Below, piece after piece: positions 1,971 to 19,573 of a DNA stretch of 64,000 nucleotides. The notes below the pieces were generated by a model. It saw nothing but the letters and a program-made list of their open reading frames with translations. It was not told the origin of the DNA and did no database searches. This DNA is from a virus, in the IMG/VR virus record IMGVR_UViG_3300014720_000019, positions 1 to 64,000 of that record. One strand, written 5' to 3'. Every line of letters begins with the position of its first letter. The first letter of the stretch is position 1. The translations under genes and the position numbers were made by a program.

Positions 1971-2040
1971 AGTATTTTTGTCCTTAATTAATAAACAACT
2001 TACACTTTTAGCAATAGGTTAGTATCACCTACATGCTATT

Positions 2041-2327: not shown

Positions 2328-2352
2328 AATAAAAGGGGCCAATTAAGGCCCC
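2328..2352 (-). terminator. GGGGCC/GGCCCC hairpin + T-tract after RNAP gene (copy of early-cluster element)
   Basis: aataaaaggggccaattaaggcccc directly after stop at 2361. Confidence 0.75.
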
Positions 2353-2360
2353 AGTTATTA

Positions 2361-5300
2361 CTAGATAGAAGCTAATAAGACTTTATTAGCTTGCATCATA
2401 AAGTTGATGCCATTTCTATACATCTTATTCATCCAGCCATCTTGAGGAAGAAGCTTAGTATGATATTCATGCTTAGAAACAAGCTTCAAACAAGACATAT
2501 ATTCAGTGAACTCATCACCCTCTTCAACACTGATCAACTCAAGACCAGTAGAAGGATCAAAGCCTCTACCCATATGTCTAAACATACCAATCATTGCAAT
2601 TCTGCAAAGCTTAAAGTCATCCACCTTCTCAATCTGTTCAATGGTCAACTCATTCCTGTCCAACTTGCCATAACGCATTCTATAGTAGTTAAAGTCACAG
2701 ATGATCTCCATAACTTGCTGCCAATCAGAATCCTTAGTAGGCAAGTCTAATGCATCAAGCATATATTCAATAGCATCATATAGAACAACATTCTTGTCAT
2801 CCTTCACAGCAATTCTAGGAAGAATAGAACCATCTTCAGCCTTAGCATATGCATACAACGGACCGTTAGGAACCTTATCATACATAACAAGGCTAGCAGC
2901 TCTCAACACTTCAAAGAACTCAGCAGCTTTAGCACTATAGCCAGATAGACCAAGACCTTCATAGATCAAAGTCCAAATGACTAAAATAGCCTTCTCCAAT
3001 AAGTCCATTCTAGTAAAAGACTCATCATAAGACTTAACAGCAGCCCAGCAAGTAATAGCACTTGCAATACCATAGCCAGTACCAACAGAGTACATGTAGT
3101 GATTACTAGTCTTAACATGAATACCCGCTAGCCCAACATGACCATACTCAGTGTTAAATGCAAACTCCTCAACATCCTCATGAGGCAAGAAAGAAGCATA
3201 AGCAAACCCAGCAGGTCTAATCAATTTCTTCTTAGCAGGAGACTCAATAAAGTCACTGAAGGGCAGCTTAGAACTGGCATAAACAGTCTTATAACCAGTG
3301 AGACCTACAATAGACTTGTTAGCAGCAATAGCATCAGCAATAGTCAACCCTCTAATAGAACAGTTGATCAAGCCAATACCATCACCATCAGAGTCACCGC
3401 TATTACCTTGAGCCCAAATACAAGGAAGAATACCAACATGACTTGGTTCAATCTCATTAGTAATAACAAGCTTACACATAGCTGGCATAAACATAGGAAT
3501 CCGTACAGCAGCAACAATAGTACCATTAAGCAAAGAAGGATCAAAGTACTTAACCTCATAGCCTTCTGCTTTCAAGTTCTTAGTGCTAACTTCAATGCAA
3601 TGCTCGGGCATTACAAAGTTAGTCTTGTAATCATCCTTGTTGTCAAAGTACTTAGTAACAAGATACTTCTCATTCCAAGTCTTATCAGCATTCTTAGCCA
3701 ACAACTTAGCCATACCACAGTCAGGATTGACCAAAGCTTTAGGCAACCCATCAGTATCAGGAATCAAAGACAAGTTGTACACAGTTCTAACCTTGCCGTT
3801 GACAAGACACTTAGAACTTCTAGACAACTTCTTAATAATACCCTTGCTTTGTAGACCAGCAATCAACCAGCCCCTTAAGCTATTAGAAAGCTTAAGAACA
3901 GTAGCGTTAATCTTACTGTCAATACCACTAATGCCTATGGTTCTAACGGGATCAGCAAAGAATCTAATAGCGCCTACAATCTCTTGAGAGATTTGATCAG
4001 CAGTACCACCGATAAAGGTCATGGTCTTATTAACTGTAGACCAATCAATGAGCAACTTAGAGTTGTTAGATTGACCATTAGAAGTGATCATCAGACCATC
4101 AGGAAAGATCTTTGCCATAATATTACAAACTTGTCTATCGTCCTTACCGTTGAGATTAGGAATGATAGCTTGAAATGCCTTCAATTGTTCAGTGTCTTGA
4201 GCATTAAAGACATAGGTCTCATCATAGATCTCATAACTAGCCATGTCTAATAGACCTTGCAAAGCTTGTCTAATAGGTAAGGCTTCAGAGTATAAAGCCT
4301 CTACAAGCTTAGGACTAATCAATGACATACCCGCCATCATCTCAGGAGTAAGATTAGACTCGCCAACAGACTCATCAGCAGTAGAAATCTCAAAGTTCAA
4401 TGGCATATAACCAACAAGAACTTCAATGTCTTCTTCCACAACAACAGCACCCTTGCCAAGGTCTTCAACAAGCCGCCACTTAAAGTCAAATCCATTGCCA
4501 GTATTAACATCATAACCAGCAGAAATAGCAGACTCCAGAGCAAATTCATAGTGCGTTTTAGGCATAGTAACTTGCACTTTCATCTTCTCAGTAGTCTTAT
4601 TAACCCATTCAGATACAACGTTCTTGGGATTCATCAAGTCAGACTTCTTGACCTTACCATTGTTGTAAGTAATCACCATTCTACAACCATCATTATCACC
4701 TTCAACAATAGCAGTTTTGATGCTTGCATTAGAATTAGCAAACATTACAAGTTCTGCAACATTGCCCTTTCTAGTCTCATTGTTGTAAATGATATCAGCA
4801 GGATAGCCAACCTCATTACCATTAGCATCAAACCACTTGTAGTTAGGAGAAACAACCGTAGTAGCTTTGAGGCCAGCAGTTCTGAACTTAGCAAATTGGA
4901 CTTGCTTTACAGCCTTCACCTTCAATTGAATCTTGCAGTGACTAGGGCGATAACCATTCTTGCTCATCTTAGGAGGCTTAACCTTGTAACCAGTTACAAT
5001 AAAGAACTGATTATGAGTGTTGTTAGTAAACAATGGCTTGATGTTGCCACTACCATAATCAAACACAGCAATAGTCTCGCCAGGGCCAAACACCTTGTCT
5101 TGAGGAATAGCTTCCAATACATTCTCAATGTCATTCAAGAACATAAAGAAGTTAGCATGGTCTTTAGTAATACCAGAGTTGTACTTCTCCCACACTTCAC
5201 CAGTACAATCATTGAAGTTAATCAACGTAGGAATAGACTTGTCTAAGCCATAGTAAGCAGCATACTCAGGATTCATAACAGCAACACCACTGCCACTAGA

Positions 5301-6572
5301 GATGCTACCATCAGTCAATGCAATCTTGACCATCTGACCTTCCATCATACATGCCTTACCAGTAGACATGATCTTAGTGCCAAACTTAGATTCAACCCTA
5401 GTAGAAGATAGAGTACCATCAGGATTAGTCTGACACAAATCAGAGCCTTGATATTTGAAAGACTGAGTGATTCTATTCAACATCTTGGCACCAACTTCAA
5501 TGACCTTAGTCTTCTTGTTGGCTTTAGCACCAGTATCATTGATGGTAAATTGACCCTTCTGAGTCTTAGTAGATCCATCCTTGCTCTTATAAGAAACAGT
5601 ACCACCAAAGATACCACAAGCATTAGCAGCATCATCATTGTATACAGTCTTAGAACCAACCTTATCCATAAGAATAGTGTTGCCCCATTCAACTTTAGCA
5701 GTCTTGATCTTGCCGTTGGTCATAGCATAGAAGGGAAAGCCCATGATTTGTCTGCCAGGATTATACATAAACTTTACACCCTTAGCTTGGCCCTTCTTCA
5801 AGTACTTGTTGCTATCATTGGCAACAACACCATAGTTCTGCTCTTCATCCCACAAAGCAGGAATAGAGTTGATGATACCTTCACCCTTCCATAGACCATC
5901 ATGACCAAGCTTTACAATCTCAGCACCTAGCAAGAACAGGAAGCCAGAAGTACCAACAGTTATTGCATCAATGGCAACTCGCTTAGTAGCTTGTTTAGTA
6001 GTATTACCAACCGTAAATTCACCAGTTGCAAAGTCAAGTTCCAAACCACCATAGTTAGCAGCATATGTGACTTTAGTACCTTCCAACTCGATACCATAGC
6101 TCAAATAGCTAAACATCTTAGCTAGAACATCTGGAGACAGAGCAGATAGTTTAGCAGCTACTTGAGCCATAACAAAGTTAGGAAGATCATCATGCTTAAC
6201 AGCAAGAACACCTTCCAAGTCTTCAACAGACGCATCTACAAAGTAGACAAGATCATCTTCAAGGAGATCATGATAAGACATATCTTCAATAGGAAGATAA
6301 CCATCAGATGTAGTCATGCTACCAAATCCTTTAACCACACCTGAAGCTGCCATCACACAACCACAAGCATGAAGATAAGTCAACAGAGGACTTACATTAA
6401 GCTTAGAAGGACCTGAGGGTAATACATAGTTGAGTTCTTGAGTCTCAATTGCAAGGCTAATGTTTTCAGAGGCAAGGTAGTTAGCTAGATCAATGTGAAG
6501 ATCATTGTCTTCATCAACTTGGAAGTTGAGAAGGAATGATAGAGTTGCTTCAAGGCCTTTTAGATTGGACAT
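2361..6572 (-). CDS. Single-chain two-barrel (double-psi beta-barrel) DNA-dependent RNA polymerase, probably non-virion
   Basis: 1403 aa; beta-like motifs AKFRTAGLKATT and PADIIYN, then beta'-like VRIPM and catalytic GDSDGD (3381-3395) in canonical order. Confidence 0.8.
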   Translation of the reverse strand: MSNLKGLEATLSFLLNFQVDEDNDLHIDLANYLASENISLAIETQELNYVLPSGPSKLNVSPLLTYLHACGCVMAASGVVKGFGSMTTSDGYLPIEDMSYHDLLEDDLVYFVDASVEDLEGVLAVKHDDLPNFVMAQVAAKLSALSPDVLAKMFSYLSYGIELEGTKVTYAANYGGLELDFATGEFTVGNTTKQATKRVAIDAITVGTSGFLFLLGAEIVKLGHDGLWKGEGIINSIPALWDEEQNYGVVANDSNKYLKKGQAKGVKFMYNPGRQIMGFPFYAMTNGKIKTAKVEWGNTILMDKVGSKTVYNDDAANACGIFGGTVSYKSKDGSTKTQKGQFTINDTGAKANKKTKVIEVGAKMLNRITQSFKYQGSDLCQTNPDGTLSSTRVESKFGTKIMSTGKACMMEGQMVKIALTDGSISSGSGVAVMNPEYAAYYGLDKSIPTLINFNDCTGEVWEKYNSGITKDHANFFMFLNDIENVLEAIPQDKVFGPGETIAVFDYGSGNIKPLFTNNTHNQFFIVTGYKVKPPKMSKNGYRPSHCKIQLKVKAVKQVQFAKFRTAGLKATTVVSPNYKWFDANGNEVGYPADIIYNNETRKGNVAELVMFANSNASIKTAIVEGDNDGCRMVITYNNGKVKKSDLMNPKNVVSEWVNKTTEKMKVQVTMPKTHYEFALESAISAGYDVNTGNGFDFKWRLVEDLGKGAVVVEEDIEVLVGYMPLNFEISTADESVGESNLTPEMMAGMSLISPKLVEALYSEALPIRQALQGLLDMASYEIYDETYVFNAQDTEQLKAFQAIIPNLNGKDDRQVCNIMAKIFPDGLMITSNGQSNNSKLLIDWSTVNKTMTFIGGTADQISQEIVGAIRFFADPVRTIGISGIDSKINATVLKLSNSLRGWLIAGLQSKGIIKKLSRSSKCLVNGKVRTVYNLSLIPDTDGLPKALVNPDCGMAKLLAKNADKTWNEKYLVTKYFDNKDDYKTNFVMPEHCIEVSTKNLKAEGYEVKYFDPSLLNGTIVAAVRIPMFMPAMCKLVITNEIEPSHVGILPCIWAQGNSGDSDGDGIGLINCSIRGLTIADAIAANKSIVGLTGYKTVYASSKLPFSDFIESPAKKKLIRPAGFAYASFLPHEDVEEFAFNTEYGHVGLAGIHVKTSNHYMYSVGTGYGIASAITCWAAVKSYDESFTRMDLLEKAILVIWTLIYEGLGLSGYSAKAAEFFEVLRAASLVMYDKVPNGPLYAYAKAEDGSILPRIAVKDDKNVVLYDAIEYMLDALDLPTKDSDWQQVMEIICDFNYYRMRYGKLDRNELTIEQIEKVDDFKLCRIAMIGMFRHMGRGFDPSTGLELISVEEGDEFTEYMSCLKLVSKHEYHTKLLPQDGWMNKMYRNGINFMMQANKVLLASI

Positions 6573-6582
6573 AATAGTTGAT

Positions 6583-6651
6583 AGTGAGTTTGCTTAATGT
6601 TTATTGTACTTACATAAGTACAATAAAAGGGGCTTTATTGCCCCTTTTATT
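6583..6651 (-). promoter_or_regulatory. Early-cluster element upstream of RNAP gene
   Basis: GGGGC/GCCCC hairpin with TTTTATT, overlapping TTATTGTACTTA/TAAGTACAATAA hairpin, AACTCACT at 6583-6590. Confidence 0.7.
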
Positions 6652-6660
6652 AATCAGCTA

Positions 6661-7842
6661 CTAAACCATAGAAGACCTTCTAGGAGAAGATGCTTTAGGC
6701 TCATCAACAGTAGTCTCAACAGACTGTTGTTGTACTGTTGTCTTAGCAGTGTTAACTGCACCTGCCATACCCTTAATGTTGATAACATCATTAGTGTACT
6801 CAACATCAGAATACTTGTCTTGCATATCCATTAGATATGCCTTGCAAGTTAATAAAGACCAGCCAGGGAACTGAGTAGATTTAGCAAGCTCTTGAAGTTT
6901 AGCTTCAACAAACTTGTTCCACTTGCCAGCTTCCAGTTCAGCTTCAAATGCAGTTTTGGCATTAGCAACCGCTTTATTACCAAACTGATTCTTAGCCTCG
7001 ACCTGCTTCTTCATACCATCAACAGAACCAGTGCCATTGATCTTCTTCTGTAGATTAATAACAGAAGAAACAGAAGAAGAGAAACTGCTAACTGCAATCT
7101 CATTCTTGTACTTAGGTGTGTAGAAAACACCTTCATTCCAAGTAGCTGCAACAACAACAGTTTCAAAGAAACGACCATAGACAGGTTCACCATCTTTAGG
7201 CTTTAACACCTCAACAATATCACTGCACTTAGCAGTGCCATTAGGGTTAGCGCTGAGAACAAAGAAGATGCTCAAGCTTTTAACTTGACCAGCAAGAGTC
7301 TTAGCACCCAACTGTTGAACAAAAGACTTGTCCCAATGAGCACAGTTAAACTCAAATACAATCTCACCACCAACATTATTGTCAGCAGCAATTGCTTGCC
7401 AAGCTTCAAAGTCAATATTCTCATTGACAACAACAGACTGCATAAGAGCCTTCTTAGCAGTGTCATTCAGCATTGGCAAGCGCTGTTGCAACTCTGCCAA
7501 TTCATCATCCTCACAATCTACCAACTTGTAGACAGTAGTAGTACCTTCAGTGATGTATTTAGGCTCACCATCCTTCAAAGTGTAACCCATTGGCATGAAC
7601 TTCATGAAAGCACGATCACCTTCATTAGTAGAAGTAAAAGCACCACCAATGGTCTTCAATGCAGATTTAGGACCAAATGCAACCTTCTGAGAGAAGTTTA
7701 CATTGACAGAATAGACTTTATGACCATTCAGCACAGCTTCATAGACCTCGTCCATTGAACCAAAGTTCAAAGACTTCTTAGGCTTAGAAGTAGCCTTGGT
7801 TTCAGACGCGTTATTAGAAGCAGCCTTGTTAAATAAAGACAT
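6661..7842 (-). CDS. Hypothetical protein immediately upstream of RNAP
   Basis: 393-aa ORF with highly biased codons; no motif recognised. Confidence 0.85.
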   Translation of the reverse strand: MSLFNKAASNNASETKATSKPKKSLNFGSMDEVYEAVLNGHKVYSVNVNFSQKVAFGPKSALKTIGGAFTSTNEGDRAFMKFMPMGYTLKDGEPKYITEGTTTVYKLVDCEDDELAELQQRLPMLNDTAKKALMQSVVVNENIDFEAWQAIAADNNVGGEIVFEFNCAHWDKSFVQQLGAKTLAGQVKSLSIFFVLSANPNGTAKCSDIVEVLKPKDGEPVYGRFFETVVVAATWNEGVFYTPKYKNEIAVSSFSSSVSSVINLQKKINGTGSVDGMKKQVEAKNQFGNKAVANAKTAFEAELEAGKWNKFVEAKLQELAKSTQFPGWSLLTCKAYLMDMQDKYSDVEYTNDVINIKGMAGAVNTAKTTVQQQSVETTVDEPKASSPRRSSMV

Positions 7843-7858
7843 AATAATATTCTCCGTT

Positions 7859-7922
7859 GGCCCTTTTGTTTAATAAAGTGAGTTTTGGGCCTAAATAAAA
7901 GGGCCAGACACGGCCCTTTTAT
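7859..7922 (-). promoter_or_regulatory. Early-cluster double-hairpin element
   Basis: Minus: GGCCCTTTTATTTA GGCCC AAAACTCACTTTATTAAACAAAA GGGCC ... ATG. Confidence 0.75.
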
Positions 7923-8061
7923 TATAATTGATTACTATAAACTCAGGGAGTATTTATAGTAATCAATAATGTATTAGTCTATTGAAGATGTTTAGGAATA
8001 ATAAGCTTATTCTGTTTACAGAAGGTATAAAGATCAACTTTATCACCATTTACTGTCCACT

Positions 8062-9552
8062 TTAAACCTTCTTCTTAAGTACAGGTTTAGCAGCAACCTT
8101 TAAGTACTTAAAGCCGTTAGGGTCATCTGCTATATAATTGATATAGGGATTATTAGCGCCCTTTCTACCCCCATAATTCCTCAAGAAGAAAATACCTTTA
8201 ACTTTAGGAAGTTTGCCCTCCTCTTCAATTAAAGTTAGACCTGCCTTTTTAGCAGCTTCTATATAGGGAGCATACTTAGTAAGACTCTCTGCTAACACCG
8301 CAGCTTGTCTCTCCTTTTCAGCTTTATTCCTAGCAGCAATGTCAGCCTTCTTCTTAGCTTCTGCTTCTTTAGCTTTCCTATTCTTATCAAGACAAGATTG
8401 AATCTCCTGTCTAATAAGATTAAGATTATAAGCATCATCTACTGGCATATAGAAATACACATTATCCCCATATTCATCCTTATAAGATGCCAAGTATTTA
8501 CCTTGAGTATACTTCCAACTATCAAAAGTAACTCCTAATGAGTTGGCCACAGAATGAGCCCAATTATCACATTGGTGTTCCATTCTGTATAGCCAAGGAA
8601 TATACTCTGTAGCTTTTGGGTTCTCAGAATTATATAGAATTATATCTTTATAATTCTCCTTAACCCAAGCATCAAGAGTATAAACACTAACAGCATATTT
8701 ATACTCTTGATTATACTGTTTATAGAAGTGATAATCATTAAAAACCTCTAACTTTAACTTGTTGATATAAGCTTCAGCCTTTTCAAGACTATCAACAATA
8801 AAAGTTGTATCTTTATTGATTACAGATCCATCTTTTAACTTCAAGACCTTCTTTTGAAAAGTCTTAATATAAGTTTCACTAAAGCTTGTAAAAGCGTCAG
8901 CAAAACCATCCCCAGATGAACCTCCATATTTTTCAGTAACTTTACAGGAGGAAGGAGTATCAATACATAATATTGCTCCACTAAAGTGCTCATCAACTAT
9001 AGCTTGATAATCCTTCCATACTTGAGGATACCAGTCTTTATCAAGCATTATCTCTTTAGCCTGAGCAATTAAAGCCGCTTTAGTATCAGCTTCATCTTTA
9101 ATAGCTTTCAACCTCAAAGCTTCAGCCTCTTCTTTGGCTTTAATAGCAGCTTGCTTCTCCTGCTCTTCTTTATATAGAGCATCAACAAGAGACTTATCTT
9201 CAACGTATGTCTGCCACACCAATTCAGACTCATGTTGAAGAAACCACTCTTCAAACCTTATATTCTCCTCATCTTCATCAAAGAAGAACCAACCATACTC
9301 ATCAGAGTCATAGGCTGTATGCTCTAAATGTGAAGGTATATTAGCATAGATGCTACCATCTTCTAGCTTATATAGAGTATAAGTACCCACATCAATCATT
9401 GTTTTGAGTGCTTTATTAGCATCTTTAACAATGATACTTGCTTGTTGCCATTCACCCTCAACAGTGATATAGCAAGTTACATTTTTGATATTAATCATAG
9501 AATTAATCTCCATAAACTTAGGTTCTAATATAGTAGTAATACTATCTATCAA
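8062..9552 (-). CDS. Hypothetical protein with coiled-coil segments
   Basis: 496-aa ORF; start uncertain. Confidence 0.85.
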   Translation of the reverse strand: MIDSITTILEPKFMEINSMINIKNVTCYITVEGEWQQASIIVKDANKALKTMIDVGTYTLYKLEDGSIYANIPSHLEHTAYDSDEYGWFFFDEDEENIRFEEWFLQHESELVWQTYVEDKSLVDALYKEEQEKQAAIKAKEEAEALRLKAIKDEADTKAALIAQAKEIMLDKDWYPQVWKDYQAIVDEHFSGAILCIDTPSSCKVTEKYGGSSGDGFADAFTSFSETYIKTFQKKVLKLKDGSVINKDTTFIVDSLEKAEAYINKLKLEVFNDYHFYKQYNQEYKYAVSVYTLDAWVKENYKDIILYNSENPKATEYIPWLYRMEHQCDNWAHSVANSLGVTFDSWKYTQGKYLASYKDEYGDNVYFYMPVDDAYNLNLIRQEIQSCLDKNRKAKEAEAKKKADIAARNKAEKERQAAVLAESLTKYAPYIEAAKKAGLTLIEEEGKLPKVKGIFFLRNYGGRKGANNPYINYIADDPNGFKYLKVAAKPVLKKKV

Positions 9553-9588
9553 AGTACTAATAACTATACTATTATTATCTATAATCTA

Positions 9589-10965
9589 TTATGACAATTG
9601 GCCTTCAAAGTTAGAGATCTCAGTGTTAAGATCTCTAATAGCCAACATAATGTCATGGTTAGACATGCCAGAAGCTCTCTTAGCAAGAGGAGTCTTTAGC
9701 TCTTCTTTGTACTTCTTAATAGCATCTTTAAAGCCATTAATAGTACGTCTTACTTGAGCCTTCTTATCAGCCTTTACAGACTCAATGTAAGACATAACAG
9801 CTTCTAGCTCTCTCTTAAAGACAGCATAGAACTTCCTAGTAGCTCTTAAAGCCTCTTCATACTTACCAGCGTCATAGAGCGCTTGGCAGTTATCAACTAA
9901 CTGCTTGTAAGTGTTGAAGTGGGCTTTATGATTGCTATTTAAATCACCACCTTCTTGTAAGAATGCTTCCACATCTCTTACAACTTGTTTGGCATTAGCC
10001 AAGTACTTAGCAGTTTCCTGCTTAGCCTTGTTAGCCTTTGCCCTAGCTAGATCTGCTTGCTTCTTAGCCTGCTCAGCTTTATAGAGCTCAACAGCCTTAG
10101 CAGCACGTTCTGCCTTAGCCTTTGCTTCAGCCTCTTCAGCTAGTTTAGCAGCAACAATAGCTGCTTGTTTAGCTGCTTCTGCTTCAGCCTTGGCAGTTGC
10201 CAACATAGTAGTAACGTTACTACTATCAAAGGGAAGTGCTAACTCGTCTAGCACTTCTTGTAACAAGACTGGCTTAGCAGCTTCAAAGCCACTAGCCAAG
10301 TCCCTCTCATAGACTTGAACTTCTTGGTCTGCCCAAGCATTCAAGTCTTGATTTACCTGAGCCTTAATAGACTCAAACTCATCAACAACTACACTAATAG
10401 TTGCTTTGAGTTCTGCTTTATATGACTCATACTGAGCCACATAAGCAGCATGAATCTCACTCTTTCTCTCAAAGATGAGATCAGCAACAGCCCCCTTCTG
10501 TTGCTCATAGAAGGTCTTATACATAGCCTTCTTCAAAGCATCTTTCAATGCCTTATTACTATCATCAACAACAGTATTAATGATAGGATCTACAGCCTTG
10601 TTAGGCTTAGGAGCAAACTGGTCAGCTTTGGTGCCAGTATTGCCCTTAACAACAGGCTTAGTGTTAACAGAAGGAGCGACCTTCTTTGCAGCTCTAGGCT
10701 TTTGTACAAACTTTTGGGCATTATCCCAAGTTGGTTCCACCAAGTCTGTAGGGATTAAACCTACAAAGACTAAAAGTGCAATCTTCTTAGCTTGAACAGC
10801 CTTGAAGACTGACTTAGCCTTCTTAGCTTTAGCAGACTTGTTAGCAGTCTTAGCTGCTTGTTTAGCAGCTTTAGCAAGACGTGCAGCATTGGCCTTAGCC
10901 TTTTCTGCTTCAGACATACGATTTCCAACTTGACCAGCCTTCTTAATTTTAGCCATGATACTCAA
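9589..10965 (-). CDS. Ala/Lys-rich coiled-coil protein with histone-H1-like basic N-terminus
   Basis: 458 aa; real start probably ATG at 10956 (MAKIKK). Confidence 0.85.
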   Translation of the reverse strand: MSIMAKIKKAGQVGNRMSEAEKAKANAARLAKAAKQAAKTANKSAKAKKAKSVFKAVQAKKIALLVFVGLIPTDLVEPTWDNAQKFVQKPRAAKKVAPSVNTKPVVKGNTGTKADQFAPKPNKAVDPIINTVVDDSNKALKDALKKAMYKTFYEQQKGAVADLIFERKSEIHAAYVAQYESYKAELKATISVVVDEFESIKAQVNQDLNAWADQEVQVYERDLASGFEAAKPVLLQEVLDELALPFDSSNVTTMLATAKAEAEAAKQAAIVAAKLAEEAEAKAKAERAAKAVELYKAEQAKKQADLARAKANKAKQETAKYLANAKQVVRDVEAFLQEGGDLNSNHKAHFNTYKQLVDNCQALYDAGKYEEALRATRKFYAVFKRELEAVMSYIESVKADKKAQVRRTINGFKDAIKKYKEELKTPLAKRASGMSNHDIMLAIRDLNTEISNFEGQLS

Positions 10966-10967
10966 AT

Positions 10968-11030
10968 ACCCCTGTATTATATAAGTGAGTTGTTAGGGGT
11001 CTCCTAAATAAAAGGGCCAGACAAGACCCT
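10968..11030 (-). promoter_or_regulatory. Early-cluster double-hairpin element
   Basis: Minus: GGCCCTTTTATTTAGGAG ACCCCT AACAACTCACTTATATAATAC AGGGGT. Confidence 0.75.
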
Positions 11031-11555
11031 TCTAAGTAGTTATTATTTATACTAGTTGTAACATCTCCAGCTATATTATTCAATTTGTATGTGGTAAACA
11101 ACATCTTATAAACTTAACTATAAGAATGTGCAGTCTCGCAGCACACATGGTTATTGTTATTGATGATATAAGGATCAACAGCCACAGATTCAAAGTAGGT
11201 ATAACCCACATTACCTTTAAGGAAAAAGCAATATAACCCCTCTAATTGTTCTCTTCTTGAGGATGAAGGAGAGCCACATTATTGCCCTGTCATCTACTTG
11301 TGTTGGGTCTATCAGTCTCTTAGATGCATTGCACTGATCTGTCACACCATACACACTAAAAGGGCCTGCTAGTTAATAGCAAGTAGTAGATGCAATAAGA
11401 GGTAACTCTCATTGTTGTAGTATTCAGTCTTCTTTATACTCATATATAGTCCTACTAGCTTCTACCAGTAACAAGCGGTTAACCTGTTAAAGTACTAATG
11501 TAGATAGCATCCATATATGGGTCCTGCCTATTATCATGTGCAGTTTATATCTTGT

Positions 11556-11590
11556 TAATAAAAAGGGCCATAGGATAGGCCCTTTTTATA
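11556..11590 (-). terminator. GGGCC/GGCCC hairpin with T-tracts (element copy)
   Basis: taataaaaagggccataggataggccctttttata right after stop at 11595. Confidence 0.75.
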
Positions 11591-11594
11591 TTAT

Positions 11595-12011
11595 TTAATC
11601 ATAGTCAGAGTAATCAAACTCCTCCTCTTCTTCTTCCTCAACCAAAGGAGGTGGTGAGATTTTCCATTTATTAGAGTCCTTATAAATAGACTCCATACCC
11701 AGAAGAGCCGCCCAATCTTTTCTCCTATCAGTATAGTGATCCTTTGAAAAGATATCACACTGAACAGAGAATCCAAGATTAAGTATATCTTGGATAATAC
11801 CTCTAGTTGCTCTAAAAGCAGAGAGGATAGTACTCTTGCTTGGACTGGTAGAGTCATCTTTATAATAACTCTCTTTATACTTGACACTGAGAGTCATTGT
11901 ACCCTCATTTACAATATAAACATGAAGATCTTCATGCTTATATACAGTATATACAGCTTTATAATCAAAGCTGTAAGAATTTAAAGCAGAAAGGAATTCT
12001 TGATAAGACAT
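11595..12011 (-). CDS. Hypothetical protein with acidic C-terminal tail
   Basis: 138 aa ending EEEEEEEFDYSDYD. Confidence 0.85.
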   Translation of the reverse strand: MSYQEFLSALNSYSFDYKAVYTVYKHEDLHVYIVNEGTMTLSVKYKESYYKDDSTSPSKSTILSAFRATRGIIQDILNLGFSVQCDIFSKDHYTDRRKDWAALLGMESIYKDSNKWKISPPPLVEEEEEEEFDYSDYD

Positions 12012-12023
12012 AGTTATTTACCT

Positions 12024-12062
12024 AGCACTTGTGAATTTAATTTTGTGCCAAATAAAAGGGCC
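12024..12062 (-). promoter_or_regulatory. Early-cluster element
   Basis: Minus: GGCCCTTTTATTT GGCAC AAAATTAAATTCACAA GTGCT. Confidence 0.65.
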
Positions 12063-12168
12063 TGTCATGCCATAAAATTGTTTTAAATAAATAAACATAG
12101 GGATAGGGAGCAAAGATCTCCCTTAGATGTAAGCGGGCCCCCAGCTCTACAAATGGTGATAAATCTAC

Positions 12169-12194
12169 TAAATAAAAGGGCCATTACTGACCCT
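12169..12194 (-). promoter_or_regulatory. Early-cluster element copy not followed by an ORF
   Basis: Plus taaataaaagggccattactgaccc. Confidence 0.6.
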
Positions 12195-12287
12195 ATATAT
12201 TTAAACTTCTATATCTCTTACTGGCTAGTTCATCCAGTGACTTCTATATTTTAATTGGCTCATCCATCCAATAACAAAGCAAAAGAA

Positions 12288-12764
12288 CTACTTAATCTTC
12301 TTGTTAGCAAGAAGTCTAGCAATTCTCTCCTTAGCAGCTTTTGCAGCCAGGTGAGAAGATAGTGCAGCATCAAGATGAGACTGTTTAGTAGCAGCCACTT
12401 GATCTGCAAGAAGACCTTCTGCTTCCATAGTAGAAACAAGAGACTCAATTGCTTGAGCCTTTTGCTCTACAAGATTAGCAGCATATGCTGCGTCTTGTGC
12501 CATGAAAGCAAAGGTTTGCACCTCAGCTTTAGCAGAGTTGTACTGGTGATTGACAACAGCCTCTGTTTCCAAAAGCTCCTGATACTCATCAGACAAACCA
12601 GCATCTTCTAACAACTGATCCTCTGCATCAGCACGTTGAGCCAATAAAGCAGATCTAGCTTCTTTAGCCTCTTGTTCTGCTTTAACCTTAGCCGCCTTTT
12701 GAGCAGCTTCAGTTTGAACAGATTGAGCAGAGATGGAAGCCAAGTATTCAGTAAATAGAGACAT
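12288..12764 (-). CDS. Ala-rich coiled-coil protein
   Basis: 158-aa ORF, AAGGA upstream. Confidence 0.85.
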   Translation of the reverse strand: MSLFTEYLASISAQSVQTEAAQKAAKVKAEQEAKEARSALLAQRADAEDQLLEDAGLSDEYQELLETEAVVNHQYNSAKAEVQTFAFMAQDAAYAANLVEQKAQAIESLVSTMEAEGLLADQVAATKQSHLDAALSSHLAAKAAKERIARLLANKKIK

Positions 12765-12778
12765 GATAGTTTCCTTAA

Positions 12779-12834
12779 CCTAGAACTAATTAGTGAGTTA
12801 TCTAGGATAAGTAAAAGGGCCAAATTAATGACCC
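12779..12834 (-). promoter_or_regulatory. Early-cluster double-hairpin element
   Basis: Minus: GGCCCTTTTACTTAT CCTAGA TAACTCACTAATTAGT TCTAGG. Confidence 0.75.
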
Positions 12835-12850
12835 AATTACTTAAAGAAGA

Positions 12851-13195
12851 TTAAGGATTATTCTTCTTGTTTTTTGCTTGTCTAGCAAGTCTTACAGCAG
12901 CAACAGCAGCTTTAGGATCTGCCATCATGCTGTTAAACACAGCAAAGTTCTTATCTGCTTCCTCAGCAAGATCCTCTGCATCAGCAAGATCTTCAGCAAT
13001 CTTAATTGCCATAGATGTTGCATCAAAAGCAGCAGCTTCAGAGTTAAGCTGTTTAATCAAAGCAACCTTTTTAGCTACTTCTTTCATACGCTCAACTTCT
13101 GAAGCTCTAGCCTTAGCTTCAGCCAACAATTGATCCTCATAAGAGACCTCAACTGTTGCTTTAGCTGCTGGGAACAACCAACTAAACCAAGACAT
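12851..13195 (-). CDS. Ala-rich coiled-coil protein with aromatic amphipathic N-terminus (MSWFSWLF)
   Basis: 114-aa ORF, AAGGA upstream. Confidence 0.85.
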   Translation of the reverse strand: MSWFSWLFPAAKATVEVSYEDQLLAEAKARASEVERMKEVAKKVALIKQLNSEAAAFDATSMAIKIAEDLADAEDLAEEADKNFAVFNSMMADPKAAVAAVRLARQAKNKKNNP

Positions 13196-13208
13196 AGATT
13201 ATCCTTTC

Positions 13209-13262
13209 CCTAGTACTGAATGACTTATACCTAGGATAAATAAAAGGGCCAATAAAGGCCCT
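13209..13262 (-). promoter_or_regulatory. Early-cluster double-hairpin element
   Basis: Minus: GGCCCTTTTATTTAT CCTAG GTATAAGTCATTCAGTA CTAGG. Confidence 0.7.
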
Positions 13263-13268
13263 AATTAT

Positions 13269-13592
13269 TTAGTTAATATACTTCTTGTAAGGAGGTGGAT
13301 AACCCTCATTATAAGAATTGAAGACATCATTAAGTATATTAATATACTTAATATCAACAGAGTCAAAGTCTTGCTTAACTCTAATCATAATCTCTGAACG
13401 TAGCTCCATAAGAAGCACATAGAGATCATAAACTTGAGAGCTATTACAAGTCTTTCTACAGTAGTAATCCAACTGTACATCTGCCACTGCTACAGAGTGA
13501 TAGTTAAGTTGTCTAGCAACATATCTAAGTAGCTTGCTAGAATTAGCACACCACTCAGACATCTTTCTAGAACTCATATCAATAATAGCCAT
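13269..13592 (-). CDS. Hypothetical protein
   Basis: 107-aa ORF, AAGGA upstream. Confidence 0.8.
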   Translation of the reverse strand: MAIIDMSSRKMSEWCANSSKLLRYVARQLNYHSVAVADVQLDYYCRKTCNSSQVYDLYVLLMELRSEIMIRVKQDFDSVDIKYINILNDVFNSYNEGYPPPYKKYIN

Positions 13593-13607
13593 GATATTTT
13601 CCTTTTA

Positions 13608-13666
13608 CTACAGGCATAAAGGCATCCTATAGCTAAATAAAAGGGCCCAACTTAATGAGCCCTTTA
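13608..13666 (-). promoter_or_regulatory. Early-cluster double-hairpin element
   Basis: Minus: GGGCCCTTTTATTTAG CTATAGG ATGCCTTTATG CCTGTAG. Confidence 0.7.
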
Positions 13667-13668
13667 TA

Positions 13669-14085
13669 TTAGATTAGAGAGATAGGATCACCATCTGTAT
13701 CTCCTAAATTGGAATAGGTATCTCTATACCAATCATAAAGAAGATCTTGATAGGATTCTGGGTCAATATCCTGTAAATCCTCTTCAGAGAGACCAAGATC
13801 AGGATGTCCATTGATAGATATATATCTATCAATGAATAGATCAATAGAAGACTTTTTAAACTCTACATTAGAGTAGAGTCCTGCATCTAAAACATAATCC
13901 CAAATGCAGTTAACCTCAGAAGAAGCACCTACAAAGCAATAGTCCTTGTGGATCTCAAGACCCAACATAAAGAATATATCTTCATCATAAACATATCCTT
14001 CATGATAGCTACCATCAACAACAAACATGCTGTTGTCAATAGCAAAAGAAGTATTGTAAGAAACAACAACTGTATTAGAAGACAT
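13669..14085 (-). CDS. Highly acidic hypothetical protein
   Basis: 138 aa, Asp/Glu/Tyr-rich. Confidence 0.85.
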   Translation of the reverse strand: MSSNTVVVSYNTSFAIDNSMFVVDGSYHEGYVYDEDIFFMLGLEIHKDYCFVGASSEVNCIWDYVLDAGLYSNVEFKKSSIDLFIDRYISINGHPDLGLSEEDLQDIDPESYQDLLYDWYRDTYSNLGDTDGDPISLI

Positions 14086-14096
14086 AACATTTACCT

Positions 14097-14148
14097 AGCC
14101 TGTATAAAGTAATTTAGGCCAAATAAAAGGGCCTATTACTAAGCCCCT
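14097..14148 (-). promoter_or_regulatory. Early-cluster double-hairpin element
   Basis: Minus: GGCCCTTTTATTT GGCCT AAATTACTTTATAC AGGCT. Confidence 0.7.
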
Positions 14149-14159
14149 AACAATATCAA

Positions 14160-14336
14160 TTACTTCTTCAATATATTCAAATAAAACCTTGCTTGACTAC
14201 CAGTTAAACCTTTATCATTCTTATGCTTATTAGCATATTGGTTAGTAGTCATACCTGCTCTTTTAGCCTTTGCAGACAAGGCACCAGGTCTTTTAATAGC
14301 CTTGTCAACATCCAATTTATTATTATCTTTAGCCAT
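14160..14336 (-). CDS. Small basic protein (58 aa)
   Basis: Not in ORF track: MAKDNNKLDVDKAIKRPGALSAKAKRAGMTTNQYANKHKNDKGLTGSQARFYLNILKK; flanked by element copies. Confidence 0.75.
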   Translation of the reverse strand: MAKDNNKLDVDKAIKRPGALSAKAKRAGMTTNQYANKHKNDKGLTGSQARFYLNILKK

Positions 14337-14382
14337 AGTATTACTGTATAAACATAGACAATATATACAGTAATATATGAGT

Positions 14383-14412
14383 TAATAAAAGGGCCAATTA
14401 AGACCCTTTTAT
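14383..14412 (-). terminator. GGGCC hairpin/T-tract (element copy)
   Basis: taataaaagggccaattaagacccttttat. Confidence 0.7.
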
Positions 14413-14423
14413 ATTAGAGATGA

Positions 14424-15062
14424 CTAGTCTCTTGGATAGTTTAATATCCAATCTTTGAAGAGCCGCCACTCTTCTTTATCTTTAGCAATCCAAAGGTCTA
14501 TACCTTCATCATGCTCATCATATTGTTCTAACGCACTAAAGCCAGTATCAACTAGTCTAATAGTGCATCCAACACCACTATCATGTCTTACCAACATGAT
14601 GTTATTGAATAACACATCATCAGACATGTTATTCTTCTTGACCATAGACGGCCTTCTAATGTCACCATGAGCCCAGCCACTAGCCCATAGTTCTTCTAGT
14701 TGAGACTCAGCCACATCAATAGCAGCTTCAATCTCATTCCTACTGAAGGCAGTAGGAAGACATGGATATAGTCTCTCCATAGCAATAATATATCCCACCT
14801 CCTCAATGTGGAAGTGATCCACATACTTCACTACTAAAGAATTAATCTTGTTAGCCCATTGCATAGCTAACAACTCTGCTGGGACAAAGCCATCCTTGTT
14901 AGTTTCCCAGCAAACTAACAATTCATTATCAAAGTCATCTTGTGACAGAGACTTAATAACAGTATGCTCACTAAGAGCATACACGGACCCAGTAAAGCCA
15001 CTGGACAGTAATTGAGCCTCTGGAAACTCAGAAGCAATAACAGTCTTAATAGAAATACCCAT
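14424..15062 (-). CDS. Ser/Thr protein kinase-like protein (minimal PKL fold)
   Basis: SGFTGSVY loop, VIK lysine, MERL hinge, HGDI...NIML catalytic loop, LVDTG. Confidence 0.85.
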   Translation of the reverse strand: MGISIKTVIASEFPEAQLLSSGFTGSVYALSEHTVIKSLSQDDFDNELLVCWETNKDGFVPAELLAMQWANKINSLVVKYVDHFHIEEVGYIIAMERLYPCLPTAFSRNEIEAAIDVAESQLEELWASGWAHGDIRRPSMVKKNNMSDDVLFNNIMLVRHDSGVGCTIRLVDTGFSALEQYDEHDEGIDLWIAKDKEEWRLFKDWILNYPRD

Positions 15063-15073
15063 GATATTAATAC

Positions 15074-15150
15074 TGCTGCATTGGTAATATATAGTGAGTT
15101 ATATGCAGCACATCTCCTAATAAAAAGGGCCTATTACAGCCCTTTTATTA
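15074..15150 (-). promoter_or_regulatory. Early-cluster double-hairpin element
   Basis: Minus: GGCCCTTTTTATTAGGAGATG TGCTGCAT ATAACTCACTATATATTACCA ATGCAGCA. Confidence 0.75.
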
Positions 15151-16026
15151 TTAGTTAATAAGATTATCCTCATCATCAACTAACACTAAACTATCTGGAT
15201 CTCCATACCAAATAGCAGGTTCCTCATTTTCATCAAGGAACTCAAGACAGCATTCAACTGCCTTTTGATAATAACCAGGTACAGACCTAGTTACTTCCCA
15301 CTGCTTAAGAAAGGAGGAGTATGTCAGAGGAAGATCCTCTTTATCAGAGGTAAAGATACCTCTGATATCATAGAAGGCAGTAGTACCTTCTGGTAAGAAA
15401 AGATCAGGTGGTCCCTCCCAATGTATTCTTACATCATCCAATTCACGAAAGAGATAACTGCCTAATACACTGGCAGTCCACCCATCAATTCTACCAGCAT
15501 TAAAGAGCCTATGAACTAAGCTCTCAAACTGATTTATCATCTCCTGAGAGTAGTTATACCTACCCTCGTTAGAGTGAGTGACCCTTCTAAAGAGTCTTAA
15601 CAAACTAGGTGGAATAATAGGTTCATTACCTCCCTCCCACCTAGTTCTTGTATAAGGTAGACCAGTATGAAGATATAGAATACCTTCATCTTGGTCTTCA
15701 TCTTGGGTGTCCTGACCCCAAGAACCAGTGAGATATATTTCAATCTCATTGGTCTCTTTGTATACCCTCCACTGAGTGTACTGATCAGGATGATACCCAA
15801 GTGCCAATCTTGGTTCATCCTTATACTCATCAGGAGTCTTACATCCTTCAAGCCATGTAGCTTGAGAGAACAGCTCCTGTGGCCAGTTGCACATGTGAGA
15901 ACACAATAGAGTGCCCTCCTCACCTGTCTCCTTGTCTCTTACCAAGACAAGGTTGTTAAATACATCTTCTGATGTATTAACATCAGAAGAAAGAATAACA
16001 AAGCGGCGAGTAGTAGAATTAGACAT
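15151..16026 (-). CDS. Hypothetical acidic protein, first gene of the minus-strand cluster
   Basis: 291-aa ORF. Confidence 0.85.
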   Translation of the reverse strand: MSNSTTRRFVILSSDVNTSEDVFNNLVLVRDKETGEEGTLLCSHMCNWPQELFSQATWLEGCKTPDEYKDEPRLALGYHPDQYTQWRVYKETNEIEIYLTGSWGQDTQDEDQDEGILYLHTGLPYTRTRWEGGNEPIIPPSLLRLFRRVTHSNEGRYNYSQEMINQFESLVHRLFNAGRIDGWTASVLGSYLFRELDDVRIHWEGPPDLFLPEGTTAFYDIRGIFTSDKEDLPLTYSSFLKQWEVTRSVPGYYQKAVECCLEFLDENEEPAIWYGDPDSLVLVDDEDNLIN

Positions 16027-16035
16027 GACATTAAC

Positions 16036-16085
16036 ACAGGATTATATAAAGTGAGTTTTATCCTGTTCTCCTAATAAAAAGGGCC
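16036..16085 (-). promoter_or_regulatory. Early-cluster element heading the cluster
   Basis: Minus: GGCCCTTTTTATTAGGAGA ACAGGAT AAAACTCACTTTATATA ATCCTGT; no adjacent upstream minus-strand gene to terminate. Confidence 0.75.
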
Positions 16086-16414
16086 AATAAGCATAGCCAC
16101 AACATATAATAGTGTTAATTGTAAAAACAATTTGCACACAGGGTAGGGGGGTATACACTGCTACTATATAACCCTCACAAACCCGCAACTGTACCTTCAA
16201 AAACAAAGCTTTTCACATTTAATTAAGTATTTAATAATCATCTACATGTACATTCAAAACTAAAGCTTCTTCATATAATATTTAGTATTAATATTAGTAT
16301 TAATTATTTAATATTATTGCAATCACTATTATTGTTTGATATAATAAATACCAACCAATACTATATTTATTATTACTACTAACCCTATACAATAACTAAC
16401 TACTTATATTAACT

Positions 16415-17584
16415 GTGAAGATAAACGCCACACTCTACTTACACAATAGTTCACTAGCCCGTCTATATTATTCCATTAGAAGCATGGATAAGAGAGGGGC
16501 GGGTTGGATTATGTGTAAGCTAGATAAGCTAGTTAAAGTTAGTGGTCTCTCTACAACAAGTGTATATAGAGTATTAACACAGTTACAAGATAACAAGTGG
16601 TTGTATTCTTATGAGTTAAAGGGCAACAATAGTAATAACAAAGGCTATGTTTATATTAAGTATGTGTCTGATAGAAACATAGTTAAAGATAAGATAAACA
16701 CTAACAACTCTTTATATATTGTGGCCCCTCTTAAACTACTTAGAGACAAGAAAGCTATAAAGGCTAGATGTTACTTAGGTGAGATGAATAGGGCCCAGTC
16801 TATAGTAGAGAGCAAGCTATCATATAGCATTGGCAAGAGAAAGATAAGTGGTGAGCTACTCTCCTTATCAACTATTAAGAAGGAGAACAAACAACTAGTT
16901 AAAGGTAGAGCTAACAAGGGTAAAGTTACCCCTCTGGATAGACCTAGTTATGACATTGTTTACCCTTCTAACAATAGTAATAACAGCAGTGATATAAACC
17001 CTGTTTTATCTAATACAACTAGTACTAAACAACAACATATAAGCTACGCAATTAAAGGTCAGCGTGGTGTGAAGATTGTTAATAGTACTAAGTATAAGGT
17101 AGCAGCAATAACATCACAAACACTAGCTAAAAAGCTTTGTGTAAACAGAAGAACAGTTGACAAGTACTTACAACAGTTTAAAGCTAATAGAGTTAAGTTA
17201 TACAAGAGGGTCTCCCTATTAGAAGCCACAACAGAGGCACCTTATGTGTTGTGGGACATAGATGAAGATAGAGGCATATGTGATGCATATAGACCTCTAC
17301 CTTTTATCTATACAAAGAATGTTCTTCACACACATCAAAGAGACTTGATCAAAAGGCCTCTTATCTCATACTTAAATGATGACCAATTAGAAGTGGCAAA
17401 ACTATGTGCCATTACTAAGGGTTACTCATATGACAATGAGGGTGCTGAAACCTATTTAAAGAAGACAGGGTTATCCCGCTTTAGAAGAAATACAAACTCT
17501 ATTAGTGATAAACCTCTTAAGTACAATCCCCATTACTTATATAAAGGTCAACTAACAACAGAGCCAGAGGATGTATATTTCTAA
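16415..17584 (+). CDS. Basic DNA-binding protein with two helix-turn-helix motifs
   Basis: LDKLVKVSGLSTTSVYRVLTQL and SQTLAKKLCVNRRTVDKYL. Confidence 0.65.
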   Translation: MKINATLYLHNSSLARLYYSIRSMDKRGAGWIMCKLDKLVKVSGLSTTSVYRVLTQLQDNKWLYSYELKGNNSNNKGYVYIKYVSDRNIVKDKINTNNSLYIVAPLKLLRDKKAIKARCYLGEMNRAQSIVESKLSYSIGKRKISGELLSLSTIKKENKQLVKGRANKGKVTPLDRPSYDIVYPSNNSNNSSDINPVLSNTTSTKQQHISYAIKGQRGVKIVNSTKYKVAAITSQTLAKKLCVNRRTVDKYLQQFKANRVKLYKRVSLLEATTEAPYVLWDIDEDRGICDAYRPLPFIYTKNVLHTHQRDLIKRPLISYLNDDQLEVAKLCAITKGYSYDNEGAETYLKKTGLSRFRRNTNSISDKPLKYNPHYLYKGQLTTEPEDVYF

Positions 17585-17694
17585 TAACAAGTGTTTTATT
17601 AATATAAAGGATTGACCTTTATATGGCACTAAAATAAGAAAGTAGTAATTACAGCTTTAAGCCTAAACAAACTAAATAATACTTCTAACAACAA

Positions 17695-17745
17695 CAACAA
17701 CTTGTACTGTGTAAACACCCTATAAAACACAGTACAAGTTGTTGT
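17695..17745. other. Long perfect inverted repeat (hairpin)
   Basis: aacaacttgtactgtg ... cacagtacaagttgtt. Confidence 0.8.
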
Positions 17746-17810
17746 TTATTTTATTATTAGTGATACTATATAACTATACTAATAACAAGTAACTAACAAT
17801 AACTATAACT

Positions 17811-18230
17811 ATGGGTAAATTTTATGAGTTAACAGAGGCTAAGTTAGCAGAAGATAAAGAGTTACTAAACAGTAATAAACACGCTGATATACTAAGACAA
17901 GAGATATTATCAGATGATGAATTAGACAACTGTACTAATGATGACACTGCTAACAATCTAGCTAAAGTATTTGATGATATAAACAAGTATACAAAGTACT
18001 ACATACCCACATCATACAGTGGTAACAATAAACTATACAATGACTATGTAAGAAAGTTTCTTACTAGGCGCGCCCAACAAATATTCAATTCACCCAAGGT
18101 ACTAATATATGCTCAAGTTCCTCAGAAACTTCAAGGAGTTATGTTTGCTTTTAGCCCAAGTAAATATAGAAAGGCAATCAAAAGTCTTTTTAGTAGAGTC
18201 ACCTCATTTGATATTGACTCTCAACCCTAA
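17811..18230 (+). CDS. Hypothetical protein
   Basis: 139-aa ORF. Confidence 0.75.
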   Translation: MGKFYELTEAKLAEDKELLNSNKHADILRQEILSDDELDNCTNDDTANNLAKVFDDINKYTKYYIPTSYSGNNKLYNDYVRKFLTRRAQQIFNSPKVLIYAQVPQKLQGVMFAFSPSKYRKAIKSLFSRVTSFDIDSQP

Positions 18231-18435
18231 AGTATTCTTAATAGGCTCCACTTTAGAACAGGCCCAACAAATAGAAGAACTAATAGATTTATATGGAGAT
18301 GATTGGTCTCAAGTGTATAAGGATCTAATCACTAAGAAGACATTAGAAAGCACTTATACAAAGGATGTAAAAGAAGTATGTACTAATAATATAACACCTT
18401 GTAAATGTAGGGATAAACATAATGTTTGCGGCTAG
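18109..18435 (+). CDS. Hypothetical protein (start probably near 18214)
   Basis: Fills gap before PAAR gene; 5' part overlaps previous ORF. Confidence 0.5.
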   Translation: MLKFLRNFKELCLLLAQVNIERQSKVFLVESPHLILTLNPKVFLIGSTLEQAQQIEELIDLYGDDWSQVYKDLITKKTLESTYTKDVKEVCTNNITPCKCRDKHNVCG

Positions 18436-18718
18436 GATATTAGACACATGTTGTGGATTAATAGGCCCCTCTTGTGGATCATGTGGAGGGCCTTTTTCAT
18501 ATGGATGTGGCGCACCAATATGCACAGGATCATCTACATTTATAGTAGACACATTACCAGTAGCAAGACTAACAGATTTAACTTATGTTGGACCCATCAT
18601 ATCAACCACCAACACAACAGTATTAGCAGACAACTTACCAATTGCCACATTACTAGATACTACCTCATGTGGCTACATACAACAAACAACTAATACAACA
18701 TTTCTAGTACTTAGTTAA
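18422..18718 (+). CDS. PAAR-repeat spike-tip protein
   Basis: 98 aa with three PAAR-like motifs (FAAR, PVAR, PIAT), Cys residues, TGSSTFIV strand. Confidence 0.8.
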   Translation: MFAARILDTCCGLIGPSCGSCGGPFSYGCGAPICTGSSTFIVDTLPVARLTDLTYVGPIISTTNTTVLADNLPIATLLDTTSCGYIQQTTNTTFLVLS

Positions 18719-18747
18719 GGAATACACATACTTATATAAAGAACAAT

Positions 18748-19569: not shown

Positions 19570-19573
19570 TTTT

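Follow-up and report, generated by a model that had tools for sequence, protein, structure and literature searches.

What is the function of a hairpin that recurs at the gene starts of one phage locus with a different stem but the same loop sequence? The question is raised by a gene array in the first 64 kb (64,000 nucleotides, the window in what follows) of IMG/VR virus record IMGVR_UViG_3300014720_000019, a 107-kb record (G000) with an estimated completeness of 59%. As judged by sequence, the source phage is an uncultured, distant relative of Microcystis phage Ma-LMM01. Nearly none of the window proteins has a Pfam or PHROG match, and no close DNA relative of the window was found in the phage collection searched. 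A small hairpin with a variable stem and a conserved AACTCACT loop box heads almost every transcription unit of the array. To our knowledge, almost no promoters have been defined for the single-chain two-barrel polymerases of phages. The array offers a compact, repeated and conserved candidate signal, a natural mutagenesis in which many stems surround one box. The description of the gene cluster as early is an assumption.

A conserved box in hairpins of variable stem

The exact 8-mer of the box occurs nine times in the window against 3.7 expected, a number reached in two of 100 shuffles. The count by itself is mildly unusual; the placement of the box is the outstanding feature. Six of the nine copies are on the minus strand (at 6583, 7877, 10984, 12792, 15093 and 16050), and all six are intergenic and lie close upstream of open reading frame (ORF) starts (6583-16057). 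RNA folding placed five of these in hairpins at exactly the coordinates of the original prediction, which had described stems that differ but always pair. The five stems are 5-8 bp long and are formed by Watson-Crick pairs only. The loops are AT-rich and 12-23 nt long. The box begins 1-3 nt past the 5' arm, as anticipated from its reported position near the 5' side of the loop, and is separated from the 3' arm by a variable gap of 5-13 nt. The sixth box was rightly placed before the polymerase gene, at 6583, but no stem encloses it. The degenerate versions proposed at 12024, 13209, 13608 and 14097 are all present and all four fold into hairpins. The element does end close before the ATG; the distance from 3' arm to ATG is 9-16 nt instead of 9-17 nt. 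Within its spacer the box hairpin is the second of two, the first being a GC-rich hairpin with a T-run. The second hairpins and boxes of the window are listed here.

16036-16066, minus strand: box hairpin, 7-bp stem and 17-nt loop; precedes the 291-aa gene starting at 16026
15074-15110, minus strand: box hairpin, 8-bp stem and 21-nt loop; precedes a 212-aa gene; two compensatory pair changes in the ortholog from relative G001
12779-12806, minus strand: box hairpin, 6-bp stem; precedes a 158-aa gene
10968-11000, minus strand: box hairpin, 6-bp stem and 21-nt loop; precedes a two-gene unit (ORFs 9589-10956 and 8062-9513)
7859-7891, minus strand: box hairpin, 5-bp GC stem and 23-nt loop; precedes a 393-aa gene; almost identical to positions 84-116 of relative L098
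6572-6590, minus strand: stand-alone box, stemless; 10 nt from its end to the ATG of the 1403-aa polymerase gene
6607-6620, minus strand: separate small hairpin upstream of the stand-alone box, between T-run and box
14339-14375, minus strand: second hairpin, 12-bp stem; its box-like sequence is outside the loop, on the 5' side of the stem
14097-14120, minus strand: second hairpin with a degenerate box
13607-13633, minus strand: second hairpin with a degenerate loop; G-T wobbles in the stem pair on the sense strand only
13207-13236, minus strand: second hairpin with a degenerate box
12024-12049, minus strand: second hairpin, degenerate box; stem type also present in relative L097 and, in two copies, in G001

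The relatives compared were two metagenome contigs (L097 and L098), a 94-kb IMG/VR record (G001) and L128. Their polymerases are 45-48% (L097 and L098), 33% (G001) and 26% (L128) identical to the 1403-aa protein of the window. The nearest polymerase homologs (P0001-P0006, 79-48% identity) are not among the relatives compared. G001 was the sole true relative recovered from IMG/VR by a scan with a T-run 15-mer, and protein-based scans recovered L097 and L098 together with the distant L128-L130. An exact-pattern scan of IMG/VR for a T-run followed by the box gave a single match in each of 88 contigs, which we took as chance. Neither cassette nor box was seen in L129 and L130. Counts over four genomes refer to the window record, G001, L097 and L098.

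Because the 3' arms could not be aligned with MAFFT across loops of unequal length, stems were sought by descriptor and compared with control sites. A perfect stem of at least 5 bp surrounds 9 of the 12 intergenic boxes in the four genomes, compared with 11.6% of 568 one-mismatch control sites scanned under the same rules (binomial p = 6e-7). Taken singly, the hairpins are thermodynamically modest (mean z = -1.26 over 27 spacers), with folding energies of -7 to -11 kcal/mol as RNA and -3.4 to -6.5 kcal/mol as DNA.

The same design is found with other stems in L097, L098 and G001, and the nine box-bearing hairpins of the four genomes have eight distinct stems. In L097 the hairpin around the box has a 7-bp stem that is new; its box before the polymerase gene has decayed, and a ribosome-binding site (RBS) motif is present there. 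L098 has three boxes, each past a T-run and ahead of an ORF start: two are in hairpins, and for the third, before the polymerase gene, the 3' arm of the stem contains the ATG. G001 has the same array, with second hairpins both with and without the box. Box-less hairpins and hairpin-less boxes thus both occur.

Orthologous cassettes were assigned via their downstream proteins. For the 212-aa gene pair (53% identical), the hairpins at 15074-15110 of the window and 21939-21969 of G001 differ by two double changes that preserve pairing. For the 291-aa gene pair (45% identical), the stems are wholly different and the hairpin and its box-like loop are retained. Two paralogous cassettes of G001 have the loop in common and unrelated stems. 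Pairing and loop sequence therefore appear to be selected, and stem sequence not. On these comparisons the signal of the element is real and under selection, and the claim of selection on structure plus loop sequence gains support from the paralogous stems, the three relatives and the two compensatory double changes.

An Rfam 15 covariance-model search of window positions 1-20000 returned two chance-level matches only (E 0.65 and 0.79). With no description found in the literature searched either, the proposal of an undescribed cis-element stands. Intergenic sequence is enriched about 2-fold in a shorter motif (ACTT, 0-2 T, ATA), to which no weight was given because AT-rich spacers may account for the enrichment. 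Complementarity of the box to 16S rRNA was dropped because matches that short are expected by chance.

Cassettes, large polymerase-like proteins and the Ma-LMM01 locus

All minus-strand sites with a terminator 3' arm and a T-run were listed as cassettes. Their layout is uniform in about 12 spacers: a GC-rich hairpin with T-run and conserved tail, the second hairpin, an RBS-like motif and the ATG, usually in the context ATGTCT. The spacers, 70-90 nt long, divide the transcription units. In 19 of the 26 cassettes of the four genomes the second hairpin starts 0-2 nt past the conserved T-run tail. A scan with the terminator consensus gave 31 matches against 9 expected. The terminator stem is extended by G-T wobbles in 15 cassettes and by the antisense equivalent, A-C, in 2, and the cassette is therefore read as RNA on the minus (sense) strand. 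The first hairpin behaves as an RNA terminator and falls within the definition of an intrinsic terminator; the second, with its large loop and no T-run past the 3' arm, falls outside it. Sense-only G-T wobbles also lengthen the main stem in four related box-less second hairpins. The cassette that opens the array has a degenerate 5' terminator arm and yet retains its T-run tail, in G000 as well as in G001; conservation of the tail beyond the needs of a terminator indicates that it has a function of its own. No consistent -35/-10 hexamer pair emerged from a sigma-70 scan of the cassettes.

The RBS motif lies directly 3' of the second hairpin or, in cassettes with no 3' motif, directly 5' of it. 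The four cassettes with AGGAG 5' of the hairpin are exactly those without a 3' RBS motif (Fisher p = 0.012); in this position AGGAG is meaningful only if transcribed with the hairpin. The second gene of the two-gene unit behind the 11016 cassette has no cassette, box or hairpin of its own. The element is set once per transcription unit and not once per gene. A per-cistron translational operator of the RegA type, with a site at every regulated RBS, is unlikely because this second cistron is without the element; in Ma-LMM01 too, a single box heads a ten-gene operon.

7892-7920, minus strand: example of the first hairpin (RNA-type terminator with T-run tail), adjoining the second hairpin
CCC at 16083, 15129, 14393, 14131, 13645, 13248, 12819, 12180, 12060, 11567, 11016, 6631 and 2337, minus strand: equivalent first hairpins
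16067-16072, 15114-15118 and 11001-11005, minus strand: Shine-Dalgarno-like AGGAG 5' of the hairpin, with no such motif 3' of these hairpins
2361-6572, minus strand: candidate single-chain two-barrel RNA polymerase of 1403 aa, DSDGD at residue 1060
20851-32622, minus strand: ORF of 3923 aa, candidate virion polymerase, DFDGD motif

The 1403-aa ORF has homologs of about 25% identity in Ma-LMM01 and its kin. An AlphaFold model of the C-terminal 844 residues (pLDDT 83) had its best PDB matches among the largest subunits of multisubunit RNA polymerases, QDE-1 and the phiKZ non-virion polymerase, with E values of about 1e-3 to 1e-2 and probabilities up to 0.98. We accept from this model that the protein is probably a single-chain two-barrel RNA polymerase, and the label "RNAP gene" given to 2361-6572 holds at the level of the predicted fold. 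The 3923-aa ORF has relatives in the same cyanophages, and its DFDGD motif is invariant in 13 homologs. The model around DFDGD had a pLDDT of 51; the protein is no more than a candidate virion polymerase. A T7-like polymerase (PF00940) gave no match in G000 (107 kb) or G001 (94 kb), and the control genomes were silent too.

Ma-LMM01 gp064 is a homolog of the 1403-aa protein (the small polymerase), and another large Ma-LMM01 ORF is homologous to the giant DFDGD protein; the Ma-LMM01 regions concerned are 34934-55903 (L125) and 59650-61062. The polymerase is the only gene common to the window array and the Ma-LMM01 locus. T-run cassettes of the window type precede gp064-067. The spacer between gp064 and gp063 contains a cassette and 42-bp repeats. 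It also has an 18-nt block, 22 nt upstream of the gp063 ATG, with a match to window positions 6572-6589 at 17 of 18 positions; 3 of 200 simulated loci match so well anywhere. The window block ends on the A of the polymerase ATG. gp063 is the first gene of the earliest operon of Ma-LMM01. The published log2 RNA values at 1 h are 7.3-7.9 for gp061-063 and 1.6-2.8 for gp064-067 (PMC5780444, Table S3). The earliest transcription therefore begins inside the gp064-gp063 spacer, and the low early RNA of gp064-067 means that the T-run cassette alone is not an early promoter in Ma-LMM01. The same study found no phage-specific motif and assumed host polymerase throughout (PMC5780444); the transcriptome was thus interpreted without any phage polymerase. 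Since the box 9-mer is not enriched over the whole Ma-LMM01 genome (87 one-mismatch matches versus 76 in the control), only the single gp063 site counts. Microcoleus phage My-WqHQDG showed no box enrichment and no homolog of the small polymerase. With homologs of both large proteins and the same box before its earliest operon, Ma-LMM01 makes the question testable in culture.

Positions 37-116 of L098 form a chimeric cassette. Its terminator and 35 nt upstream are identical to one window cassette of the pair at 11016 and 7903, its second hairpin is almost identical to that of the other, and the junction is at the T-run. The flanking proteins share only about 30% identity, so the cassettes are swapped as blocks. 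The pairing of cassettes with genes varies between genomes. In L128 (200-7910), 17 single-gene units are split by terminators with UUCG tetraloops and a conserved tail. These units have no second hairpin; an AAACAC motif is enriched in their spacers, with 12 of its 20 sense copies in the 16% of sequence that the spacers make up.

Several other features of the window were noted. Nearly all array genes (starts at 6661-16026) begin with ATGTCT or ATGGCT (Met-Ser or Met-Ala). A Shine-Dalgarno-like motif precedes about 23-30% of the G000 genes outside the array, which are tightly packed, versus 53% inside it; the low outside value suggests a host that relies little on such motifs. Two ORF-free, cassette-bounded units on the minus strand (11020-11590 and 12062-12190) are kept in G001 (~22000-22580 and 23022-23149) and are candidate non-coding RNAs; the first has a box-like sequence about 15 nt past the T-run. 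Upstream of the first cassette, a C-rich element (16131-16153) is kept in G001 (~25620-25660), and a direct repeat of about 22 nt occurs twice in a divergent region at ~16190-16268. The region around 16131-16268 may be the real transcription start of the array. The spacer past the polymerase gene (1971-2337) contains a stemless box variant with a perfect TATAAT (2217-2231) and two direct repeats of about 19 nt (~2092-2110 and ~2041-2059), which recalls the layout of repeats and then box before Ma-LMM01 gp063. A perfect 13-bp inverted repeat (7927-7975) lies between the stop of a 483-aa gene and the terminator of the next cassette.

Possible functions of the second hairpin

The original prediction offered either an N4-like hairpin promoter or an mRNA leader. 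Both mechanisms survive as readings, and membership of the N4 promoter family does not. We lean towards the leader, as a reading that falls somewhat short of an even chance: the second hairpin may be a 5'-proximal RNA stem-loop of each array message that displays the box. A phage promoter core, to which we give only slightly less credence and half of that in a single-stranded, N4-like DNA form, is nearly tied with it as the main reading.

As a leader, the second hairpin would fold in RNA, with the box (AACUCACU and then an AU-rich stretch) shown in the single-stranded loop. Initiation, or else processing of a longer transcript, would create the 5' end of the message in the conserved T-run tail or close to it. 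The stem would protect this end and set the geometry of the RBS, and in four cassettes it would bridge a split RBS. Split ribosome-binding sites bridged by a stem are found in T4 genes 38 and 25. The loop box would be bound in trans, by an RNA-binding regulator of the phage or by the transcribing polymerase itself, and this factor would decide the fate of the unit: its stability, its translation or read-through at the next terminator. Ahead of the polymerase gene, the unstructured box lies 9-11 nt from the ATG, where an RBS would sit. If this reading is true, the element is a new loop-specific control element that acts once per transcription unit.

Covarying stems are the normal signature of RNA and, with the sense-only wobbles, the abutment on the T-run, the 5' AGGAG and the higher stability of the RNA fold, they argue for the leader. 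So does the polymerase-gene hairpin of L098, with its 3' arm that takes in the ATG. A number of points weigh on the other side. The AGGAG argument comes from three independent cassettes only, and the core stems of the box hairpins are without any wobble pair, so that the strand test is silent there. The box runs into an AT-rich stretch, often TATAAT-like, as in promoters. Three phages have it stemless ahead of the polymerase gene, as does Ma-LMM01 ahead of gp063, and the minimum distance from box to ATG, 10-12 nt, is compatible with a transcription start at the ATG. Finally, the Ma-LMM01 T-run cassettes before gp064-067 are not early, and the tail alone is no early promoter there.

Alternatively, though we regard it as unlikely, the box could be the promoter core of a phage polymerase dependent on single-stranded DNA. 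Negative supercoiling would melt the AT-rich loop, and the inverted repeat would extrude as a cruciform or hairpin, showing the box and the start site, at the junction of loop and 3' arm, in single-stranded form, as in N4 but with a two-barrel enzyme. Covarying stems around a conserved loop follow the logic of the N4 promoters (PMC4496689), and the phage encodes both a two-barrel polymerase supported at the fold level and the giant ORF whose DFDGD motif is invariant. In vitro, single-stranded DNA is the only template used by the crAss-type virion enzyme, which has no known promoter motif (10.1101/2020.03.07.982082). The N4-like reading combines the promoter-like and the structural features in a single mechanism and suits an enzyme class with a preference for single-stranded DNA. 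There is a single box per transcription unit, the core stems of the box hairpins are all pure Watson-Crick, and a start 10-12 nt past the box would coincide with the ATG of the polymerase gene and elsewhere fall near the 3' arm. The 12-23 nt loops, however, lack the stability of the N4 triloops, and as DNA the hairpins reach only -3.4 to -6.5 kcal/mol. The G-T pairs of the related second hairpins would be A-C mismatches on the template strand, the 5' AGGAG would be untranscribed and hence unexplained, box-less hairpins and hairpin-less boxes both exist, and the 3923-aa ORF is only a candidate polymerase. It is an unlikely prospect that the box is the first defined promoter of a single-chain two-barrel phage polymerase of the crAss/QDE-1 type, shown as single-stranded DNA in an extruded hairpin, convergent with N4 through an unrelated enzyme and also marking the earliest operon of Ma-LMM01, which was published as purely host-driven.

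Ranked after it, and likewise improbable, is an ordinary duplex promoter, in which the box and its TATAAT-like AT-rich segment would be read by a phage polymerase or a redirected host polymerase. Transcription would restart past each terminator, and the stems would be secondary, as a fold of read-through RNA or an end mark of a mobile cassette. Such a promoter would stand once per unit between terminator and RBS, as in the PeSL cassettes of T4-type phages (PMC2839356). It would fit the 40-80 fold rise of the 1-h Ma-LMM01 RNA from gp064 to gp063, in a spacer where, the terminator aside, the box matching at 17 of 18 nt is the only cassette-type sequence. Stemless box variants (window 2217-2231, possibly also AAACAC in the L128 spacers), the coincidence of the decayed polymerase-gene box of L097 with an RBS motif and the recombination of cassettes at the T-run point the same way. 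This reading nevertheless leaves the compensatory stem changes and the 1-3 nt spacing of box to 5' arm without reason, makes the polymerase mRNA leaderless and finds no consistent sigma-70-type hexamer pair at the cassettes.

Processing punctuation, in which long transcripts are cut in the U-rich linker, each product is capped by a hairpin at its 3' and 5' ends and the box is either incidental or left over from cassette duplication, is the least probable of the four: a conserved single-stranded U-rich linker does lie between two hairpins in nearly every spacer, and the 20-30 nt from T-run to ATG in Ma-LMM01 and L128 leave scant room for a promoter, but conservation of the box across phages with 25-50% identical proteins and the stand-alone boxes are unaccounted for, and no nuclease was identified.

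Comparison with known systems

In two window copies of the box, a string of 9-10 nt is shared with the T7-group promoter core ACTCACTATA, and AT-rich sequence comes next. Unlike those promoters, the box has no G-rich start, and its spacing to the upstream conserved element is 20-44 nt. A T7-group promoter (23 bp with a G-rich start, read by a single-subunit polymerase) was rejected, only 8-10 nt of core being in common and AT-rich sequence following. Phage messages with a conserved-loop RNA hairpin near the 5' end are known from the lambda nut site (boxA/boxB) and the T4 gene 43 operator. The likeness lies in a variable stem and, immediately before the RBS, a loop or linear box that is conserved; as at nut, there is one element per transcript. 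The loops described here are much larger, and no binding protein, N-like or other, was identified.

Thermus phage P23-45 apparently has, like the phage studied here, two single-chain two-barrel polymerases, each expected to have a motif of its own (10.1101/2022.12.01.518664). 5'-end sequencing was used to map the P23-45 motifs, for which no hairpin has been reported, whereas the present box is known from sequence alone.

The early promoters P1-P3 of N4 have a 5-7 bp stem and a very stable 3-nt loop in a GC-rich heptamer centred at -11. These hairpins form on the template strand, are extruded by supercoiling with the help of SSB and are read by a T7-like virion polymerase that is injected (PMC4496689). 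Short inverted repeats upstream of genes, free stem sequence and the display of conserved unpaired bases are common to the two systems, and both phages carry a giant polymerase-like protein that is probably virion-borne. In the window, by contrast, the conserved bases fill AT-rich loops of 12-23 nt and the polymerases are of the two-barrel type. Membership of the N4-type promoter family was rejected on the large AT-rich loops and the low DNA folding energy.

The PeSL elements of T4-type phages are likewise compact cassettes of terminator and start that flank single small genes and act as recombination joints (PMC2839356). PeSL combines a sigma-70-type promoter with one stem-loop, whereas the cassettes of the window have no sigma-70 pattern and a second hairpin that encloses a box. 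The modular shuffling of PeSL is met here in the chimeric cassette of L098 and in cassette-gene pairings that differ between genomes. Under the promoter and leader readings alike, the cassettes serve as recombination joints at which genes are shuffled among these phages.

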